Shown one piece after another: positions 188-32,000 of a stretch of 32,000 bases of DNA. Source of the DNA: Faecalibaculum rodentium (lineage in GTDB: Bacteria > Bacillota_I > Bacilli_A > Erysipelotrichales > Erysipelotrichaceae); assembly GCF_001564455.1 (NCBI RefSeq), contig NZ_CP011391.1, positions 2,100,001 through 2,132,000 on the forward strand. The letters run 5' to 3'. Under the pieces are notes generated by a model, which ran no database searches, was not told the DNA's origin, and saw only the letters and a list, made by a program, of their open reading frames with translations. The translations under genes were made by a program, and so were the position numbers. Every line of letters starts with the position of its first letter. The stretch's first letter is position 1.

Positions 188-3052
188 TCACCAACTCTCC
201 ACCACCATCTCCAGCAGCTCCGCAGCTGCCACTTTATCCTTCACCCGAATCAGATGGTTCCAGGCATCCTCCGGACCTAACAGGTTGATGCCGCCATCCC
301 ACACCAGTTCCCTGTCGATCACCGCAAACGGATCAACCGGATCATCCAGCTCCCGGACGGAAAAACCTGCTTCTTTCAACCGGCGGATCGCTGCATCCTT
401 GGTCCCTTCCCAGCCATCATCGGCAGTAGTGAAAATGACAACGTCCACTTCATTCCTGCCTTCCATAGCCTGAAGCACTTTCTCTGCCCTGGAAAGAGTG
501 ATGGCAGGACTGGAAATTACGACTTCCTTTCTGGACTCCCGGAGATCCTGGAGGAAGGCATCCAGATAGTTGTCCAGGTCGAATATCGCATTGACGGTCT
601 GGGATACCGCAGGATCTGTTGTCTGCAGCTGCCAGGCCGCCTTTTTGTATGTCTTCAGACGCTTTCGATACATCCCCTGGAATACCGGAATCCGCCGGTC
701 AATGTAGTCATATACCTGCACTGTCTTCTTTCCGGGGTAGTCCCTGTTCAGCCGGCCGAGGAACTGCAGAAGCAGCCCTTCAAAGGCAATGGGTGATACA
801 AGAAACAGGGTATCGAGCCGGGGATAGCTGAATCCTTCTCCGATTTTCTGGCCTGTGGCAATGATGAGAACTGATTCGTTGTCCGGAACTCTCTTCAGCT
901 GACTCAGCTGTTCCCTGTTCTCTTTCTCAGAGTTGTCTCCATAAACCAGGAACAGATGATCTGCACTTCCTTCCAGGTGTCTGGCCAGCGTGGCTGCATG
1001 TGATTTCAGCCTTACGAATATGGCACAGGTATGACCTTCTGCAAGGGCCTGACGGACATCACCTGCAATCAGTTCGTTTCTCACAGGATCCTGTGCAATG
1101 TATTCATACAGCTCGTAGATGGCTGGCTTTTCTTCCCGCAGGCAGAGGCTGCGGGTAAACCGCGGGATAAGGAGCCTCTGCAGGTTCTGGCTCTTCGCCT
1201 TATCCATGGCACTGTAGGTGTGCCGAATATCGCCAATGAACATGGTGATAAGAGGATCCAGCTTGTCCGCCCGTTTCGGTGTGGCTGTCATGCCGTAGAG
1301 ATACGCAGGAGAAATCCGGTCCAGGATCTTTCGAAAGGTCGGAGATGCTGCATGGTGGCATTCATCCACGATGACCATTCCATAGCGGTCAGGAATGGAA
1401 TCCATGTTTCCCAGTGTCTGTGCCATGGCGATATCCACAAGGCCTGTCATGGTGTTTTTGGATCCCTTCAGGACACCGATGTGGCTTTTTCGCCTTCTGG
1501 TTTTCCCAGCCTTTGTCCGATACTCCGGAAGGGGTTCATCAAATTTCAAAAACTCCTCCAGCTCTTGCTGCCACTGTTCCAGAAGTGCGGTCTTTTCAAT
1601 GAGAATCAGCGTATTGACCTTCCTGTGCGCTATCAGGCTGGCTGCCACAACGGTTTTTCCGAAGGAAGTGGCGGCAGAGAGAATTCCATAGTCGTATTTC
1701 AGCAGTTCTTCCTGCGCTGCCTGCTGTTCCTGTCGGAGCGAACCCTGGAATTCAACGCGAAGCCATGCTCCCTTTTGCCGTTTGTCTCTGATCCGATAGT
1801 CGATGCGGCTGCTTTCCAGCCGGTGTTTCAGCGTATCCCGTATTCCACGGGGCAGCCGGATATAGCCGTCCACATCGCTGCCGATATACAGGATGCGGGG
1901 TGTGTTCCAGTTGGAATATCCAAAGCGTGTGTTCTCATACCAGGCGGGATTTGCCATGGCTGCCAGATTCCGAATCTGATTCTGCAGTCTGGGATGGAGT
2001 GTGAGGGCATCTACATAGATGCCATCGGCGAGGATGATGGTCAGAGTTCCATAGACATCTTCGGGATGGAATTCACTGTTCTGCTTCCAGGGATCCGGGC
2101 GATACTGGCTAGTCATAGCCAGTCTTCCCGTCTCAACCGCAAGTTCCTGGCCCCAGGTTTGGATATACTGCTCCATTTGTTCTCTGGTGAGCTTCTGACA
2201 CTCTTTCATGGCCTGCCACTGGTCGGGGATGGCATTCCAGTGTTCATCCACAAACGCTGTGTTGCCTTCTGTCAGCGAAGCACCGTGGAGGGGCAGTGCG
2301 ATGAGACTGCCGAGATCCTCTGTCTGGTCCTGTGCGGGAAACATCCGGTCGTAACACTGGTAGGACCTGAGAGGAACCAGCTGGCTGCCTTTGTTCAGCA
2401 GCAGCATACCAAACTGCCTGGCTGTGGAAGCTTTGACAGGTTCCTTGAAAAAGATCCAGACATGAGATCCCTTTCCGGAACGGGATCTTTCCACAAGGCA
2501 GTTGATTCCCAGCTGGGTGCAGATCATCCGCAGGGTTTCAGCTTCCTTCCTCGTCTGGGCTGGATCAGAGGCTTCGCTGTGAGCGTCAAAGTCAAAAACC
2601 AGAAACCGGCAGGTCCCATCAGGATGCAGTGGATAGATTCCAACAGGATTTGAGGACCCCAGCAGATGCCGGAGCAGGATTTTAGGGTTGATTGCCTCCC
2701 AGCCCCTGTGCAGACACTTGCTGCAGGGAGATTTTGGATTCGTGTGTTTAGGACAGACGCCGGCATTCCAGCGATACAGACACTGGGGATACCATCCTCC
2801 GTTTTTGCCTCGTTTGGCGTACACATCCATGCGGCCCCAGAACATAGAAAAGAAGAATCGGACCATGTATTCGGTGATCCATGGAAACTGGATCCGGGCT
2901 CCCTGATCCGGATCTGTATCAGGGGCTGATGGCATGGGCACTGGCAAGGATATATCATGAGACTCAAGCTGTTTTCTTAATTGTCTGTTTTCCTGTTCGA
3001 GACTTCGATATTTCTTTGCGAGTTCAATCAATGCCTGTTGAAGATATTCCAT
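188..3052 (-). CDS. AEP (archaeo-eukaryotic primase-polymerase) domain fused to an SF2 DEAD/DEAH-type helicase plus an extra C-terminal domain. Conflict-system type protein; resembles what I recall RefSeq naming TOTE conflict system AEP primase domain protein.
   Basis: Single 977-codon ORF (188..3121). Coiled coil LEQENRQLRKQLE. Cys cluster CPKHTNPKSPCSKCLH. AEP motifs FLVFDFDAH and SRSGKGSHVWIFF. Helicase motifs AATSFGKTVVAA (Walker A), VIVDECHH (II), GMTATP (III), QFLGRLNR (VI). The start is uncertain: no SD precedes TTG 3121, ATG 3082 or ATG 3052. I chose 3052 because it opens the coiled coil. Confidence 0.85.
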   Translation of the reverse strand: MEYLQQALIELAKKYRSLEQENRQLRKQLESHDISLPVPMPSAPDTDPDQGARIQFPWITEYMVRFFFSMFWGRMDVYAKRGKNGGWYPQCLYRWNAGVCPKHTNPKSPCSKCLHRGWEAINPKILLRHLLGSSNPVGIYPLHPDGTCRFLVFDFDAHSEASDPAQTRKEAETLRMICTQLGINCLVERSRSGKGSHVWIFFKEPVKASTARQFGMLLLNKGSQLVPLRSYQCYDRMFPAQDQTEDLGSLIALPLHGASLTEGNTAFVDEHWNAIPDQWQAMKECQKLTREQMEQYIQTWGQELAVETGRLAMTSQYRPDPWKQNSEFHPEDVYGTLTIILADGIYVDALTLHPRLQNQIRNLAAMANPAWYENTRFGYSNWNTPRILYIGSDVDGYIRLPRGIRDTLKHRLESSRIDYRIRDKRQKGAWLRVEFQGSLRQEQQAAQEELLKYDYGILSAATSFGKTVVAASLIAHRKVNTLILIEKTALLEQWQQELEEFLKFDEPLPEYRTKAGKTRRRKSHIGVLKGSKNTMTGLVDIAMAQTLGNMDSIPDRYGMVIVDECHHAASPTFRKILDRISPAYLYGMTATPKRADKLDPLITMFIGDIRHTYSAMDKAKSQNLQRLLIPRFTRSLCLREEKPAIYELYEYIAQDPVRNELIAGDVRQALAEGHTCAIFVRLKSHAATLARHLEGSADHLFLVYGDNSEKENREQLSQLKRVPDNESVLIIATGQKIGEGFSYPRLDTLFLVSPIAFEGLLLQFLGRLNRDYPGKKTVQVYDYIDRRIPVFQGMYRKRLKTYKKAAWQLQTTDPAVSQTVNAIFDLDNYLDAFLQDLRESRKEVVISSPAITLSRAEKVLQAMEGRNEVDVVIFTTADDGWEGTKDAAIRRLKEAGFSVRELDDPVDPFAVIDRELVWDGGINLLGPEDAWNHLIRVKDKVAAAELLEMVVESW

Positions 3053-3282
3053 GGCTTTATGATAACAAGTTTGTGTCGTCATAATGCAAGAAAGCCAAAC
3101 CCTATGCCCTGTCCGGAGCAAAATGCCGGTTCTTTCTCAGGTGTCTGAATCTCTGCTATACTCAGGAAGACTCAGGAAAAATTGCTGCAACAGTAACGTG
3201 TGGATGCCTGTCGCCTGCTTTGGATAAAGCGGGTGAATCATGGCGTATCCCTGCTTCTGTGCAGAGCAGGAAAGAACAGTCC

Positions 3283-3513
3283 ATGATTTTAGATGATTTG
3301 AACTTTGACGATATTGATCTGGATGTTTTGTTTGGGCGTGATTATGATGGCAAGGAATTTGACATGACGGAATATGTCGGTGTATGGAATGGATATGATG
3401 TGTATCTCGGGTATGCAGATGGAGAAGATCATGTCCTGCTGGTCAAGGGGAAACGGGCGTGGTATCCCAACAGTATGGACCTCGATGAGATCAAATACAT
3501 CTTTGATCTCTGA
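3283..3513 (+). CDS. Small, strongly acidic hypothetical protein (76 aa)
   Basis: ATG at 3283 is preceded by aggaaagaac. The 97-aa ORF in the track begins at a TTG with no SD. Sequence MILDDLNFDDIDLDVLFGRDYDGKEFDM... has about 19 D/E against 6 K/R. It is transcribed divergently from the AEP-helicase gene, and a hairpin terminator follows at 3600-3644. Confidence 0.5.
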   Translation: MILDDLNFDDIDLDVLFGRDYDGKEFDMTEYVGVWNGYDVYLGYADGEDHVLLVKGKRAWYPNSMDLDEIKYIFDL

Positions 3514-3593
3514 GACTGACTGATTGACTGTCACAAGACGGGCGAGGTCGGTCGTGTCTTTCCCAGGACTGGTTTTGCTATTTTTCCTACAGC

Positions 3594-3653
3594 GATTTTA
3601 AAAAGCCTGGCGCTTTCACCACCGAAGCACCAGGCTTGTTTTTATGAATCATT
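3594..3653. repeat. Hairpin repeat copy 1 (bidirectional terminator-like): A-run, stem gcctggcgcttt/gaagcaccaggc, T-run
   Basis: The sequence gattttaaaaagcctggcgctttcaccaccgaagcaccaggcttgtttttatgaatcatt is closely similar to 5396..5451. It is a 12-bp stem with one mismatch, flanked by A5 and a T-rich run, so it can terminate transcription on either strand. Confidence 0.7.
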
Positions 3654-3896
3654 CAATTCACCTGCTTAAGGAAGTTCAAAATGAGATTCTGGCGGCAACA
3701 GAGATAGCTGTTTCAATCACAGTCATCAAAGTGTCAGGTTACCAAGCCTTCCATTTCATGATAAGAAGCTGCTATAAGAAATCCAAAAGCTGGAAACTGC
3801 TCGATTTATTGTTGGCAAACGACCAGTAGTTCGGCATATGGCCGGAGTCCACCCCATTGCGAATGAGCAGATTTCATTTCAATCGTTTCAGAAGTG

Positions 3897-4313
3897 TCAG
3901 GAATCCGATTTTCGTTCGAGCACAATATCATGATCCAGATCCAGACGACTGCAGTCAATGATTGGGAGCTTCACTTCCGATATTGTGTAGGATGTAATAG
4001 TCTGGACTGCCTCACGTACGTAAGGGAATGCAACAGCCATGAATCTTTTAATATGAGAGTTGATAGCATCAATATCATCTTCTTCAAAATCCCGAATCAG
4101 TCCCTCATCCTGCAGGGAAAAAATACTGGTAAATTCCATTGGAACTTCCTTGTCATGCTTTCCGCACAGCAAAATCTGGATCCCAACCGAGAGAAGGCGG
4201 TTTTTCCTTCTGTAATCATAACCGGTCACCCCTATTACAATTTCTTCGTAAGGATGTACTTCAGAGAGTTCATATTCAAGCTTTTCAAGCTTAAAATCCA
4301 AATAAGTAAACAT
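3897..4313 (-). CDS. SecB-like chaperone (third gene of a TAC toxin-antitoxin-chaperone module)
   Basis: 138 aa. The segment AVAFPYVREAVQTITSYTISEVKLPIIDC matches, by eye, the E. coli SecB region [29 protein letters not shown] (recalled from memory). The start lies 9 nt after the antitoxin stop and is preceded by gggggg. Confidence 0.7.
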   Translation of the reverse strand: MFTYLDFKLEKLEYELSEVHPYEEIVIGVTGYDYRRKNRLLSVGIQILLCGKHDKEVPMEFTSIFSLQDEGLIRDFEEDDIDAINSHIKRFMAVAFPYVREAVQTITSYTISEVKLPIIDCSRLDLDHDIVLERKSDS

Positions 4314-27743: not shown

Positions 27744-27752
27744 GACGTGGCC

Positions 27753-27790
27753 GGAGGAGAAATGGTTGAACCTTCAACCATTTCTCCTCC
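27753..27790 (+). promoter_or_regulatory. Perfect 18-bp-stem hairpin / 38-bp palindrome at the predicted 5' end of the nrdD mRNA
   Basis: ggaggagaaatggttgaa-cc-ttcaaccatttctcctcc. The arms are exactly complementary. The left arm contains GGAGGA plus an ATG (27762) in frame with nrdD. No T-run follows. Confidence 0.8.
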
Positions 27791-27821
27791 ATACATACGA
27801 AAGCAGGAGGAATTTCAGACC

Positions 27822-29996
27822 ATGAACGTCATCAAACGCAGCGGCGAAGAAGTCCAGTTCGATATAGACAAAATTGTAAACGCTATCCGCAAGGCCAACG
27901 CAGCCACGCCTCAGGAACAGATGAGCGACCAGGAGATCCTTGCCATTTCCCGGGCAGTCGAAGAAACCTGTGTTTCGCTGAAACGGGCCAGCAGCGTGGA
28001 GGAAATCCAGGACCTGGTGGAAAGGGAAATCATGTCCCACGGGTATTTTTCTGTTGCGAAAAACTACATCACCTACCGGTATGAGCGGGCGCTGGTGCGC
28101 AAGGCCAACTCCACGGACCAGCAGATCATGAGCCTGCTGGAGCGCAACAACGAGGAAGTGAAGCAGGAAAACTCCAACAAGAATCCCCTGGTCAACAGCG
28201 TGCAGCGTGACTATATGGCCGGCGAGGTGTCCAAGGACATCACCCGCCGCTTCCTGCTTCCCCAGGATGTCATGGAAGCCCACGAACAGGGCATCATCCA
28301 CTTTCACGATTCCGACTATTTTGCCCAGCACATGCACAACTGCTGCCTGGTGGATCTGGAAGACATGCTGCAGAACGGCACTGTCATTTCCGAGACCATG
28401 ATTGAGAAACCCCACAGCTTCTCCACTGCCTGCAACGTGGCCACGCAGATCATTGCCCAGGTGGCCAGCTCCCAGTACGGCGGCCAGTCCATCACCCTGT
28501 CCCACCTGGCACCCTTCGTGCAGGTGAGCCGGGACAAGGCCCGCCGGGAAGTCCGCGAGGAACTGGAAAACTCCGGCATGTCCTTCACCGAAGAACAGGT
28601 CAATGACATGGCCGAAATGCGGGTGCGCCGCGAAATCGAAAAGGGCGTGCAGACCATTCAGTATCAGGTCATCACGCTCATGACCACCAACGGCCAGGCT
28701 CCCTTTGTCACGGTGTTCATGTACCTGAATGAAGTCGAGGACCCCCGGACCCGCAAAGACCTGGCGATGATCATCGAAGAAATGCTGAAGCAGCGCATCC
28801 AGGGCGTGAAAAACGAAAAGGGCGTATACATTACGCCGGCATTCCCCAAGCTGATCTATGTGCTGCAGCCCGACAACATCACCCCGGGATCCGAATACTA
28901 CTACCTGACGGAGCTGGCAGCCCGCTGCACAGCCCACCGCATGGTGCCGGACTACATCTCGGAAAAGAGCATGCTGAACCTGAAGATCGACAAAAACGGT
29001 GACGGCCACTGCTATCCCTGCATGGGCTGCCGTTCCTTCCTGACTCCCTATGTCACACCCTCCGGCAAACCGAAGTACTACGGCCGGTTCAACCAGGGTG
29101 TGGTGACCATCAACCTGGTGGATGCTGCCTGCTCCTCCAATGGCGACATGGAGGCATTCTGGAACATCCTCGACGAACGGCTGGAGCTGTGCTACAAGGC
29201 ACTGATGATCCGGCACAACCGGCTGAAGGGGACCCCGAGCGACGTGGCTCCCATTCTGTGGCAGGACGGCGCGCTGGCGCGGCTGAAGAAGGGGGAGACC
29301 ATCGACAAGCTGCTGTATGGCGGGTATTCCACCATTTCCCTGGGCTACGCCGGTCTGTGCGAATGTGTGCGCCGGATGACCGGTGTGGATCACACAAAGC
29401 CTGAAGGCACGAAGTTCGGCCTGGAGGTCATGCAGCACCTCAACGATGCCTGTGCAAAGTGGCGCGCTGAAACCAACATCGACTTCTCCCTGTACGGCAC
29501 GCCCATGGAGTCCACGACGTACAAGTTTGCCAAAAAGCTGCAGGAACGCTTCGGCATCATCCCGGGCGTCACGGATGCCAGCTACATCACAAACAGCTAT
29601 CACGTGAATGTGAAGGAAGAAATCAACGCCTTCGACAAGCTGACCTTCGAATCGCAGTTCCAGCGGCTGTCTCCGGGTGGTGCGATTTCCTATGTGGAAG
29701 TGCCCAACATGGAGAACAACATTCCTGCTGTCATGGCCCTGCTCACTCACATTTATGACTCCATCATGTATGCGGAGCTGAACACCAAGAGCGACTATTG
29801 TCAGGAGTGCGGCTATACCGGCGAAATCCAGATCGTGGAGGATGAAAACCACAAGCTGATCTGGGAATGTCCGAACTGCCACAACCACAACCAGGAGACC
29901 ATGAATGTGGCCCGGCGCACCTGTGGCTACATAGGCACGCAGTTCTGGAATCAGGGGCGCACCCAGGAGATCAAGGACCGCGTCCTGCACCTGTAG
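27822..29996 (+). CDS. nrdD: Anaerobic ribonucleoside-triphosphate reductase
   Basis: 724 aa from ATG 27822 (SD aggagg). ATP-cone start MNVIKRSGEEVQFDIDKIVNAI. C-terminal zinc ribbon CQECGYTG...CPNCHN. Glycyl radical motif RRTCGYIG. Confidence 0.95.
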   Translation: MNVIKRSGEEVQFDIDKIVNAIRKANAATPQEQMSDQEILAISRAVEETCVSLKRASSVEEIQDLVEREIMSHGYFSVAKNYITYRYERALVRKANSTDQQIMSLLERNNEEVKQENSNKNPLVNSVQRDYMAGEVSKDITRRFLLPQDVMEAHEQGIIHFHDSDYFAQHMHNCCLVDLEDMLQNGTVISETMIEKPHSFSTACNVATQIIAQVASSQYGGQSITLSHLAPFVQVSRDKARREVREELENSGMSFTEEQVNDMAEMRVRREIEKGVQTIQYQVITLMTTNGQAPFVTVFMYLNEVEDPRTRKDLAMIIEEMLKQRIQGVKNEKGVYITPAFPKLIYVLQPDNITPGSEYYYLTELAARCTAHRMVPDYISEKSMLNLKIDKNGDGHCYPCMGCRSFLTPYVTPSGKPKYYGRFNQGVVTINLVDAACSSNGDMEAFWNILDERLELCYKALMIRHNRLKGTPSDVAPILWQDGALARLKKGETIDKLLYGGYSTISLGYAGLCECVRRMTGVDHTKPEGTKFGLEVMQHLNDACAKWRAETNIDFSLYGTPMESTTYKFAKKLQERFGIIPGVTDASYITNSYHVNVKEEINAFDKLTFESQFQRLSPGGAISYVEVPNMENNIPAVMALLTHIYDSIMYAELNTKSDYCQECGYTGEIQIVEDENHKLIWECPNCHNHNQETMNVARRTCGYIGTQFWNQGRTQEIKDRVLHL

Positions 29997-30026: not shown

Positions 30027-30056
30027 GCACCGGATGCAGGCAGACCGGTGCTTTTT
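30027..30056 (+). terminator. Rho-independent terminator after nrdD
   Basis: gcaccgg-atgcaggcaga-ccggtgc followed by ttttt, 30 nt after the nrdD stop. Confidence 0.8.
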
Positions 30057-30164
30057 GATTCTGGCAGCCGTCGAAAAGGCGAATAGTGAACAGGACAGGA
30101 AATATACCCGGAGTGATATAAAACCGAGCAAATCAATGAGTCAAAACTCTATTTATACCCGATA

Positions 30165-30173
30165 TGTTATAAT
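30165..30173 (+). promoter_or_regulatory. Extended -10 (TGtTATAAT) 6 nt upstream of the hipB-like ATG (leaderless mRNA predicted)
   Basis: tgttataat at 30165-30173, then cagaat, then ATG 30180. No SD is present. Confidence 0.5.
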
Positions 30174-30179
30174 CAGAAT

Positions 30180-30419
30180 ATGAATTACGATAACCCTATC
30201 GGACAGTGGCTGAAAAAGGAAAGACGCGCTGCGGGTCTCACACAGGAGCAGTTTGCGCTGTACTCAGGTCTGGGACTGCGGTTTGTCCGTGATCTTGAAC
30301 AAGGCAAACCGACAGTGCGACTGGATAAAGTGAACCAGGCTCTGGCCATGTTCAACAAACAGGCCGTTGTGGGTGATCTGCAGGAGGAACGACATGGCAA
30401 CCATACTCAGGAGTGGTGA
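30180..30419 (+). CDS. XRE-family HTH protein, HipB-like
   Basis: 79 aa. IGQWLKKERRAAGLTQEQFALYSGLGLRFVRDLEQGKPTVRLDKVNQAL. It is the first gene of a three-gene Hip module. Confidence 0.8.
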   Translation: MNYDNPIGQWLKKERRAAGLTQEQFALYSGLGLRFVRDLEQGKPTVRLDKVNQALAMFNKQAVVGDLQEERHGNHTQEW

Positions 30420-30722
30420 TGTATAGATCCAAAACAGGAAAGGCGGAAAAATTCTGGAAACGGATGAAGGGTACCAGTTTCAGTACCTCCCTGAATATCT
30501 GAACAATCACCCGGTTCCCGCCAGTTTGACTCTTCCTTTGCAGTCCGGACCTTACCAGTCACAGACACTCTTCCCTTTTTCGATGGACTCATTCCCGAAG
30601 GCTGGCTGCTGGATATCGCAATGAAAAACCGGAAACTCAACCATGAAGACAGATTCGGGCTTCTGCTGACTGTCTGCAAAGACAGCATTGGTGATGTAAG
30701 GATAGAAAGAAGCTCTGTATGA
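30394..30722 (+). pseudogene. HipA N-terminal-domain (HipS-like) gene disrupted by an in-frame TAG and a -1 frameshift
   Basis: ATG 30394 has a strong SD (caggaggaacgac). Translation: MATILRSGDV, TAG (30424-30426), IQNRKGGKILETDEGYQFQYLPEYLNNHPVPASLTLPLQSGPYQSQTLFPF. The frame then shifts at or just before the T5 run 30576-30580, and the reading continues (F)DGLIPEGWLLDIAMKNRKLNHEDRFGLLLTVCKDSIGDVRIERSSV to TGA 30720-30722, which overlaps the kinase ATG. It is absent from the ORF track because neither piece starts with a start codon. Confidence 0.7.
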
Positions 30723-31678
30723 ACTGCCTGTACTGCGGAAAGCCTCTGAATCATGAGATTCCGGAAGAGTTTCAGCAGCGATGGCATACAAAATGTATTC
30801 GGTCGTTCTTTGGAACAGATACATTACCTGTACTGGACATCAGCAACAGGACTCTGGAGGATCTGGCAATGCACGCAGTCAATGGTGGAGCAGCTGTCCC
30901 AGGTGTGCAGAAAAAGCTCTCTCTGCATCTGAGCAAAGAGTCTGTTCCGAAGCTGACTATTGTAAATCATCCCAATGACTACATTCTGAAACCATCCGAA
31001 TCCAGGTATCCGTACATAACAGAGCTGGAACACCTGACAATGTCCATGGCCCAGGCTGTCGGCATCCAGACAGTAAAGCATGGGTTGATTCCGTTGAACA
31101 ACGGCCTTGCCTGCATTACACGCCGTGAGGATCGTGAATTGGATGAGAAGGATTCTTTCCGGCTCCGGGCTATGGAAGACTTTGCACAATTATCAAACAG
31201 AATCTCGGCAGATAAATACAAAGGATCGTATGAGCAGGCTGCCAAAGTTATTGAGAAATTCTCACATTTCCCTGTACTGGATAAGAGCAGGTTCTTCCAG
31301 CTCCTCGTTTTCTGCTTCATAACCGGAAATTCAGATATGCACCTGAAGAATTTTTCTCTGATAGAGAATCGGCCCGGAAGCCGCCTCTATTCCCTGGCCC
31401 CCGCGTACGATCTTCTTCCAGTAAATCTGGTTTTGCCAGAAGATACCGAAATGACGGCCCTGACACTGCATGGAAAGAAAAAGAATCAAAGAAAAAACGA
31501 TTTTCTCTATTTGGCAGACAACATGGGATTACCCCGTCCCACTGCTTTGAGAATCATTCAGAATCTGTGTCGGCAGGAACATCGGTTTTTTTCTCTGATC
31601 GATCAGTCTGAGCTGCCTGAGACATGGCAGCAAAAGTTCAAGCACTTGATTCACGACAGAATCAACAGACTGTCATGA
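30719..31678 (+). CDS. HipA-family serine/threonine kinase toxin lacking the N-terminal subdomain (HipT-like)
   Basis: 319 aa. N-terminal Cys motif CLYCGKPL...WHTKC. Gly-rich loop AAVPGVQKKLSL. Catalytic motif ITGNSDMHLKNFS. Mg-binding-like LAPAYDLLP. There are no internal stops. Confidence 0.85.
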   Translation: MNCLYCGKPLNHEIPEEFQQRWHTKCIRSFFGTDTLPVLDISNRTLEDLAMHAVNGGAAVPGVQKKLSLHLSKESVPKLTIVNHPNDYILKPSESRYPYITELEHLTMSMAQAVGIQTVKHGLIPLNNGLACITRREDRELDEKDSFRLRAMEDFAQLSNRISADKYKGSYEQAAKVIEKFSHFPVLDKSRFFQLLVFCFITGNSDMHLKNFSLIENRPGSRLYSLAPAYDLLPVNLVLPEDTEMTALTLHGKKKNQRKNDFLYLADNMGLPRPTALRIIQNLCRQEHRFFSLIDQSELPETWQQKFKHLIHDRINRLS

Positions 31679-31948
31679 GTATCACTGCTGTACTCCAGCG
31701 TATTTAATGGTCACAGGCAAAGACTCCACAATTCACAGGAATTACGTCTCCCTTGCATCCTTCCTTAACTCATGATATAGCTCTGTCAACGAAGGGGGGG
31801 ACCAGGTTCCCAAACTGGCAAATCATGTTTCATGGTTTGCCTTTTGTTTTCCCCTATTCTGTCATCCGCTCTAAAATAGATACAAACCACAGCCTTTTCT
31901 GTATGCTCCTGTTTTTCCTTCCCCCACCCCACAGAAAGGAGCCTCCTT

Positions 31949-32000
31949 ATGCCATTTGAAATCATTCAGGGCGACATCACCCGCATCCAGACCGATGCCA
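31949..32000 (+). CDS. Macro-domain protein (O-acetyl-ADP-ribose deacetylase-like), 5' partial at the window edge
   Basis: SD aaaggag, then MPFEIIQGDITRIQTDA, the typical macro-domain opening. Only 17 codons are visible. Confidence 0.6.
   Translation, partial: MPFEIIQGDITRIQTDA

Follow-up and report, generated by a model that had tools for sequence, protein, structure and literature searches.

How can an apparently active kinase toxin persist beside an antitoxin gene that is broken? The question is raised by a locus of the mouse-gut bacterium Faecalibaculum rodentium (assembly GCF_001564455.1, NZ_CP011391.1 positions 2,100,001-2,132,000, forward strand; this whole stretch of 32,000 nt is called the window, and all coordinates below are window coordinates). 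Positions 30180-31678 hold hipB, which codes for a helix-turn-helix (HTH) protein of 79 aa, then a disrupted hipS-like gene, then a gene for a HipT-like kinase of 319 aa. The preliminary description found a dead antitoxin next to a live-looking kinase paradoxical. We argue that little of the paradox remains once the locus is seen as a stage of toxin-antitoxin (TA) erosion that is uncommon but already known. The best explanation, to which we give a probability of roughly 0.6, is an eroding HipBST module in which hipS has been lost, the kinase has been weakened and the intact HipB continues to repress it.

Judged from its sequence, the module is a HipBST-type toxin-antitoxin operon with hipB as the putative repressor, hipS as the antitoxin and hipT as the kinase toxin, because all three genes have profile and PDB matches and the same HTH-hipS-hipT order, that of HipBST operons, recurs in 79 of 79 related family loci. 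A three-gene assignment had been proposed from the letters alone; profile matches, homologues with solved structures and the intact sister alleles all bear it out. The intact hipB (30180-30419, + strand) carries an HTH_3 domain (Pfam, 2.1e-6) and scores 70.6 bits against TIGR03070 couple_hipB, just under the cutoff of 71.65; it differs from other F. rodentium alleles by synonymous changes only, and a homologue lies 5′ of hipS in the family loci. When its two frame-breaking lesions are mended, hipS encodes 109 aa that align essentially full length with Couple_hipA (PF13657, E=3.4e-23, profile positions 2-98 of 99) and also match TIGR03071 (1.5e-23), Haemophilus influenzae HI_0666 (5.6e-17, residues 2-106), HipS of Legionella pneumophila (5.3e-16), HipS of Escherichia coli O127 (5e-10) and the N-terminus of HipA. 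The kinase gene (30719-31678, + strand) is an intact 319-aa open reading frame matching HipA_C (PF07804, 6.3e-43), the HipT(Lp) structures 8EZR and 7VKB (6e-43) and HipT of E. coli O127 (7AB3, 4e-18), and the alignments to HipT(Lp) and HipT(Ec) concur that it is a HipA_C core kinase without N-subdomain 1. The genes are tightly packed: hipB and hipS overlap by 26 nt, hipS (30394-30722, + strand) and hipT by 4 nt.

The edges of the operon can be drawn from the sequence with some qualification. Upstream, the nrdD reading frame ends at 29996 and is followed by a hairpin with a T-run (30027-30057, + strand; AGCACCGG...CCGGTGCT then TTTTT, read directly from the sequence), a probable terminator that would mark the start of the module; a terminator scan passed over it, its loop being larger than that scan allows. 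Downstream, the same kind of scan places a terminator-like hairpin and T tract at 31817-31851 (+ strand), 3′ of the kinase. An extended -10-like element, TGTTATAAT (30165-30173, + strand), lies 6 nt 5′ of the hipB ATG and is a candidate promoter by virtue of that -10 element, a two-hexamer promoter scan of the region having found nothing; if used, it would give a leaderless or near-leaderless hipB mRNA, and no Shine-Dalgarno sequence precedes the hipB ATG. A search for a HipB operator palindrome found none, and neither Rfam nor tRNA searches gave a match in the window. A scan of genome contigs returned relatives of F. rodentium at about 50% identity, not F. rodentium itself.

Three characterized systems frame the comparison. 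In L. pneumophila (Lpg2368-2370; PDB 7VKB, 8EZR), HipS serves as antitoxin and occludes the ATP site of HipT. The window shares its gene order, a HipS match of about 5e-16 and a kinase alignment over residues 39-318 (E=6e-43) with the VQKKLS P-loop, DMHLKN and the AYD Mg site in common. It differs in that hipS is a pseudogene, in three kinase positions (Ser54 is Ala59 in the window, Phe132 is Glu137 and Tyr127 is Cys132) and in an N-terminal mini-domain with a CxxC...WHxxC motif. Enteropathogenic E. coli O127:H6 (PDB 7AB3-5) has the same split-HipA architecture; there HipS acts as antitoxin through Trp65 in a PEGW motif that the window hipS sequence also encodes, and HipB is a transcriptional repressor. 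Its kinase, whose target is TrpS, is more distant (E=4e-18), its S57-I-S59 double-serine loop is replaced by A-V-P in the window, and its antitoxin gene, unlike that of the window, is not broken. HI_0666 of the H. influenzae HipBST (PDB 7CZO) is the best solved-structure match to repaired HipS, and is a sequence and structure neighbour only.

The hipS of this allele is a genuine pseudogene. It begins well: an AGGAGG Shine-Dalgarno sequence (30383-30388) precedes an ATG at 30394, and its TGA (30720-30722) overlaps the kinase ATG at 30719 as ATGA, just as had been read by hand. Codon 11 (30424-30426, + strand) is TAG, where near-identical F. rodentium alleles (L091, L100 and others) read TAC (Tyr), so the conjectured TAY-to-TAG change is what the sister alleles show; of the 79 HipS proteins of the family, 70% have Tyr here. 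At 30576-30580 (+ strand) a run of five T residues replaces the six of the same sister alleles, a 1-nt deletion that puts distal hipS in the -1 frame (upstream ...QTLFPF; downstream, one base back, FDGLIPEGW...RIERSSV). Both lesions of the gene described as broken twice are thus real, and a third change had been missed: codon 80 (30630-30632, + strand) is CGG (Arg), where intact alleles keep TGG (Trp80) and 99% of the family column is Trp. This third hit does not remove the counterpart of the E. coli antitoxin Trp65, which aligns with Trp71 of PEGW and is still encoded, 3′ of the frameshift. We regard the lesions as real mutations rather than assembly noise because at least four other assemblies (L081, L082, L096/L110 at 2515x coverage, and L098/L112), from different samples, match the window at every one of 1551 nt. 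An intact, translatable hipS is absent from the window and present in sister alleles, where the 109-aa gene is uninterrupted (L091, L092, L100-L104, L113-L126). Nor is a functional split product likely: the distal frame has no ATG, GTG or TTG before Met77, and starting there would leave a 33-aa tail without the invariant FFDGLIPEGW motif, which includes Trp71. For annotation, then, the hole of about 300 bp between the HTH gene and the kinase is a hipS pseudogene.

The kinase presents a more equivocal picture. Its N-terminal CxxC...WHxxC mini-domain is followed by the Gly-rich loop PGVQKKLS, Lys91, DMHLKN (31334-31351) and the Mg-binding Asp231 of AYD. The earlier claim that its motifs are intact stands, in that GVQKKLS, DMHLKN and AYDLL are retained and their columns are invariant in the family. 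The catalytic and ATP-binding residues tested in the literature (K66, K91, H208, N211, D231) are all present; together with the intact reading frame they are a counterpoint to reading the kinase as attenuated. Lys91 corresponds to Lys85 of HipT(Lp) and Lys86 of E. coli HipT, mutation of which abolishes toxicity. The autophosphorylated Ser (Ser54 in L. pneumophila, Ser57/59 in E. coli) is not present: all F. rodentium alleles have Ala59 and 92% of the family has Thr, and the literature is split on whether HipT toxicity needs this Ser. Kinase entries of 269 aa in the databases (P0135, P0137) are not truncated kinases: at the DNA level they run colinear with the 319-aa frame, the start having been called at Met51, and the start-codon call is the sole difference between the two lengths.

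Two substitutions set the window kinase apart. Codon 87 (30977-30979, + strand) is GAC (Asp), where 118 of 118 homologues have Gly, as do F. rodentium alleles P0002, P0126 and P0135; the position is four residues before Lys91. The invariance does not extend beyond the closer family, a counterpoint to reading G87D as damaging: Gly is not conserved in HipT(Lp), which has Gln here, or in E. coli HipT, which has Asn. Codon 132 (31112-31114, + strand) is TGC (Cys), where 118 of 118 homologues have Tyr; it corresponds to Tyr127 of HipT(Lp) (three residues before hinge Lys130) and to Phe in E. coli O127 HipT, in the strand that runs up to the adenine-binding hinge. These are the two non-synonymous changes that separate the window-haplotype kinase from its B-haplotype and C-haplotype counterparts alike, and with 50 of 319 columns invariant in the family the chance of both falling on such columns is about 0.025 (118 homologues). 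Allele P0143 combines G87 with C132. On the window lineage hipT has accumulated two non-synonymous and four synonymous changes, a ratio that gives no clear sign of relaxed selection. A third position is shared by the whole species: codon 137 (31127-31129, + strand) encodes Glu in all F. rodentium alleles. Its counterpart in HipT(Lp) is Phe132, which stacks on adenine, and its family column is otherwise Ile, Val or another uncharged residue and never acidic.

Comparison of the locus across strains and relatives, which the preliminary description had suggested, places these changes in context. Many F. rodentium alleles exist, and P0135, the commonest (471 index blocks), is fully intact. In other strains (L083-L090, L097/L111, L099), an IS110-family element sits in the hipS T-run, the same run as the T5 of the window. 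It is an independent event, because the 5′ part of the interrupted hipS still has Tyr11; an IS end was sought in the window and is absent. One further allele (L093, one metagenome contig only) has a 1-nt deletion in hipS at 30473 beside a G87/Y132 kinase and, if real, is a counterpoint showing that hipS loss is tolerated without the D87/C132 substitutions. Other alleles have lost the toxin instead: L105-L109 have an antisense group II intron in the Gly-loop of hipT with hipS intact, and hipT is frameshifted in P0122, P0128, P0130, P0138, P0139 and P0142. The locus is therefore eroding across the species, through independent hipS or hipT knock-outs in different strains beside intact alleles. 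None of 79 related genomes has a broken hipS; the gene is uninterrupted in all of them.

The D87/C132 kinase is not confined to broken hipS, since it also occurs beside intact hipS (P0121, P0123 and P0147 loci), and a strict story of compensation is unsupported. Because such combinations exist, the kinase changes preceded the loss of hipS, in line with the toxin-first sequence usual in TA decay. In many strains an intact hipS is retained with this kinase, and there the kinase could still be dangerous. A survey of Photorhabdus (PMC13617665) describes patchy type II TA loci with independent pseudogenisation within a lineage, usually with the toxin impaired first and the antitoxin then lost, and a few cases are on record of a defective antitoxin with an apparently intact toxin. 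The F. rodentium locus shares the patchiness and the independent pseudogenisation. It differs in that the erosion shows up among the alleles of a single species, IS110-family and group II intron hits included, and in that impairment of the toxin would here come from two missense changes only.

What would keep such a cell safe is probably the loss or reduction of both kinase activity and kinase expression. First, G87D and Y132C, near the ATP-binding Lys and the adenine hinge, may cripple or attenuate the window-haplotype kinase, and their effect would add to that of the species-wide Glu at the adenine-stacking position. Second, intact HipB would keep the operon repressed. Third, the early stop in hipS would remove the translational coupling by which the ATGA overlap feeds ribosomes to hipT, although hipT may not be silenced in this way because it has a partial Shine-Dalgarno sequence of its own (AGAAAGAAG, 6 nt 5′ of its ATG). 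Of the explanations offered in the preliminary description, a kinase inactivated by subtler changes is the best supported, with both substitutions at invariant columns. Neutralisation by HipB, also offered there, fares badly: in both published HipBST systems HipB represses transcription, and neutralises HipT in neither.

Possible but unlikely is that the kinase is still active and that HipT is limited in some other way: by HipB repression or direct HipB-HipT binding, by weak uncoupled translation, by a trans-acting paralogue of HipS or by a target that is insensitive in this host. In E. coli, HipB by itself represses the promoter, and HipT(Lp) does not need HipS in order to bind HipB; these findings, with an intact hipB, would suit a kinase whose motifs and frame survive; against them stands the failure of HipB to neutralise HipT where this has been studied. 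As for a trans-acting HipS, none of the top 120 homologues of HipS is labelled as an F. rodentium paralogue, though most of these entries are nameless. The retention of the same kinase allele with intact hipS in many strains, and the broken hipS beside an unmutated-type kinase in L093, also speak for activity, but L093 is a single metagenome contig, and both of the substitutions specific to the haplotype lie close to the ATP site in invariant columns.

The attenuated, HipB-repressed kinase can also be set against an explanation by selection. Loss of hipS on an attenuated kinase might itself be adaptive, either because low constitutive HipT raises stress or antibiotic tolerance, as with a high-persister allele of the hipA7 kind, or because the module is costly. 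We consider this improbable. It would account for repeated independent disruption of hipS in one species (by nonsense and frameshift, IS110 and a 1-nt deletion) when none of the 79 related genomes has any, and for the two well-supported hipS knock-outs both lying on the D87/C132 background. However, that association amounts to two events, the commonest allele is fully intact, and hipT has been independently knocked out too, so that plain dispensability fits better than selection for kinase activity. More doubtful again is the specific form in which D87/C132 HipT is attenuated but live and the loss of HipS (by nonsense and frameshift or by IS110) gives mild constitutive activity, recurrently selected as a high-persister-style allele. 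If true, an attenuated but live D87/C132 HipT without HipS would be a natural 'high-persister' style HipBST allele in a gut commensal.

Recoding, in which read-through of TAG and a -1 slip yield a little full-length HipS, enough for a weakly expressed kinase, is very improbable. The T6-to-T5 change does leave a canonical X_XXY_YYZ heptamer (C_CCT_TTT) in the zero frame, as the suggestion of frameshifting needs, and a -1 slip exactly there would restore the wild-type residues. Yet two rare and inefficient events would be needed in series, the product would still carry W80R, no family member among 79 related loci has such an arrangement, and the intact alleles show both sites to be plain recent mutations rather than conserved signals. 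Hardly credible is a sequencing or assembly artefact in a gene that is really intact: one lesion does lie in a homopolymer run, a classic error site, but TAG is a substitution and not an indel, and all three changes recur in the independent assemblies described above.

An eroding module with an attenuated, HipB-repressed kinase thus remains our preferred reading. Its general importance is limited: it is a HipBST-family module in an Erysipelotrichaceae commensal caught mid-erosion, with intact and variously broken alleles coexisting. Even so, the locus supplies rare, testable cases of a broken antitoxin with an intact toxin reading frame, and its allele set is a small natural experiment for HipBST, in which G87D, Y132C and E137 are candidate loss-of-function substitutions in HipT.

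Three closely packed genes can be read on the + strand at 30180-31678, between a hairpin and T-run (30027-30057) that follows nrdD and a terminator-like hairpin (31817-31851). The first, hipB (30180-30419), encodes a 79-aa HTH protein that matches Pfam HTH_3 and scores 70.6 bits against TIGR03070 'couple_hipB', slightly below the cutoff of 71.65. The last, hipT (30719-31678), encodes a 319-aa HipA_C kinase (PF07804, E=6.3e-43) matched by the HipT proteins of Legionella (6e-43) and E. coli O127 (4e-18). Between them hipS starts at ATG 30394, with AGGAGG at 30383-30388, and reads MATILRSGDV, TAG (30424-30426), then IQNRKGGKILETDEGYQFQYLPEYLNNHPVPASLTLPLQSGPYQSQTLFPF; past a T5 run (30576-30580) sense resumes one base back (FDGLIPEGWLLDIAMKNRKLNHEDRFGLLLTVCKDSIGDVRIERSSV) and ends in a TGA overlapping the kinase ATG. 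Once codon 11 is set to Tyr and the missing T is put back, the repaired 109-aa product aligns with Couple_hipA along its whole length (E=3.4e-23), as the preliminary description had expected, and also matches solved HipS proteins (HI_0666, 5.6e-17; Legionella, 5.3e-16; E. coli O127, 5e-10). That description of a three-gene module with a TAG, a -1 frameshift and an ATGA overlap agrees in every particular with the sequence, profiles and homologues. In architecture and homology this is a HipBST module, but its hipS is not intact, and the P-loop autophosphorylation serine of HipBST kinases is replaced by Ala59 (mostly Thr in the family).

The locus is flanked by nrdD (anaerobic ribonucleotide reductase, 27747-29996) and a macro-domain protein gene (31950-32000), with a LexA-like gene (HTH and Peptidase_S24) and an ImpB/UmuC-type polymerase gene upstream of nrdD (both on 1-1255 of L110, a contig from another assembly). 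A perfect extended -10 (TGTTATAAT, region 30165-30180) stops 6 nt short of the hipB start codon, and no Shine-Dalgarno lies in that gap, a layout suggestive of leaderless hipB mRNA. Immediately 5' of this -10, substitutions specific to the haplotype occur at three positions (30150, 30152, 30161).

The hipS lesions recur elsewhere. The kinase is 100% identical to an F. rodentium-annotated protein (P0001), while its closest relatives beyond the species share only ~50% identity, and 1551 nt including both lesions are base-identical in four contigs from other samples (L081, L082, L096/L110 at 2515x coverage, and L098/L112). Alleles almost identical to this one but with an unbroken 109-aa hipS carry TAC in place of TAG, as predicted from the sequence alone, T6 in place of T5, and TGG (Trp80) in place of the window's CGG (Arg). 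Across the family, codon 11 most often encodes Tyr (70%), and Trp80 is conserved in 99%. The lesions are therefore ordinary mutations (TAC to TAG, a 1-nt deletion and W80R), neither errors nor conserved recoding signals. ORF reading found no ATG, GTG or TTG in the distal frame 5' of Met77, and the sole conceivable fragment would be a 33-aa tail without the invariant FFDGLIPEGW motif, which includes the counterpart of Trp65, the residue by which E. coli HipS blocks HipT. The frameshifted frame stops at TGA 30622-30624, overlapping the Met77 ATG (30621-30623) in a second ATGA junction (30621-30624); re-initiation there could yield that tail, ending at the kinase start.

Alleles of the locus, gathered from the kinase sequence cluster and contigs encoding its members, range from intact to variously broken. 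The commonest has all three genes intact and a G87/Y132 kinase (database entries P0002, P0126 and P0135, the last of them in 471 index blocks). Others keep hipS beside G87/C132 (P0143) or D87/C132 kinases (P0121, P0123, P0147); the window allele combines D87/C132 with the three hipS lesions. Another D87/C132 allele carries an IS110-family element in the same T-run and retains Tyr11 and Trp80, so that the insertion is independent of the window lesions. A single contig (L093) has a different 1-nt hipS deletion beside G87/Y132, one allele has an antisense group II intron in hipT with hipS intact, and several have hipT frameshifts. Database 'kinases' of 269 aa are not separate short forms: their DNA is colinear and merely called from Met51. 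Among related genomes with a family kinase, an uninterrupted hipS lies immediately 5' of that kinase in 79 of 79, preceded by hipB wherever the contig extends that far. By these comparisons hipS is normally under selection in the family, and the module is dispensable and eroding in F. rodentium.

The IS (L111, 2386-4209; transposase ORF 2703-4124) encodes a 473-aa DEDD_Tnp_IS110/Transposase_20 protein, is present in several F. rodentium assemblies and is inserted at the point corresponding to 30578-30580; many short-read contigs end at its right boundary (...GAGAGTTTCACA against TTTCGATGG). L111 resembles intact-allele haplotypes 5' of the IS and carries the window-type kinase 3' of it, at 3.8x coverage, which suggests recombination or a chimeric join; its nrdD differs from the window's by ~4%, far above the divergence of the kinase region. 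The intron-like element (L105-L109) splits the Gly-rich loop between GV and QKK after 30907, and its RT/maturase ORF with a YADD motif (L106, 1086-2018, - strand) is antisense to hipT.

The kinase motifs first described as intact are so at every toxicity-critical residue known from the literature (Lys66, Lys91, His208, Asn211, Asp231). Two non-synonymous changes, G87D and Y132C, separate this haplotype's kinase from the other two, and both fall in columns 100% invariant in a 118-member family alignment (50 of 319 columns; chance of both, ~0.025), although G87 is invariant only in the closer family, being Gln in the Legionella protein and Asn in that of E. coli. The ATP-phosphate-binding Lys91 follows G87 by four residues. 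Y132 corresponds to Tyr127 in Legionella HipT (Phe in E. coli), three positions ahead of Lys130, the hinge residue that contacts adenine through its backbone. At the position of the adenine-stacking Phe132 of Legionella HipT, every F. rodentium allele has Glu137; family members have Ile, Val or another uncharged residue, never an acidic one. Since D87/C132 kinases also occur beside intact hipS, the substitutions preceded hipS loss, an order that fits the usual toxin-first erosion of TA systems, in which antitoxin-defective, toxin-intact cases are rare but recorded (PMC13617665). The lineage's two non-synonymous against four synonymous changes do not by themselves make relaxed selection evident.

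Within the N-terminal mini-domain, residues 3-27 (30725-30799) hold a motif, C3-x2-C6 ... W22-H23-x2-C26, that is invariant in 118/118 homologues, is missing from E. coli O127 HipT and looks like a zinc knuckle. The top-scoring homologues beyond F. rodentium, P0003 (413 aa) and P0004 (411 aa), are ~90 aa longer; P0003 has no HipS domain fused to it but repeats its N-terminal segment internally (GTGWHKACVKRFFMTTKLP occurs twice).

How the allele persists without HipS, the antitoxin in both studied HipBST systems (Legionella and E. coli O127), is best explained, with a probability of about 0.6, by an eroding module whose kinase is attenuated and repressed. G87D and Y132C near the ATP site, with the species-wide Glu137, would weaken the kinase; the invariant columns favour such subtle damage, raised in the preliminary description, and the retained critical residues speak against it. 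The promoter would stay repressed because hipB is intact, differing from other alleles only synonymously; HipB represses transcription in both studied systems and does not neutralise HipT, which counts against the neutralisation also proposed there. The early hipS stop would further abolish ATGA translational coupling to hipT, although a partial Shine-Dalgarno precedes the hipT ATG itself.

It is unlikely, though worth considering, that the kinase is still active and restrained otherwise: the same D87/C132 kinase accompanies intact hipS in many strains, L093, if real, lost hipS without the two substitutions, and a HipS paralogue could act in trans, but both haplotype-defining changes hit family-invariant columns. 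Adaptive loss of hipS deserves small weight. Recoding deserves very little: the deletion leaves a C_CCT_TTT slippery heptamer at which a -1 slip would give the native protein back, but TAG read-through would be required as well. A sequencing or assembly artefact, once an option, is hardly compatible with lesions shared by four contigs of other samples.

A literature search found no paper linking F. rodentium with HipA. The eroding module is a newly found, decaying member of the known HipBST family rather than a new type of system, and its value is modest: a natural allele series for probing individual residues of HipT and how well the loss of its antitoxin is tolerated.
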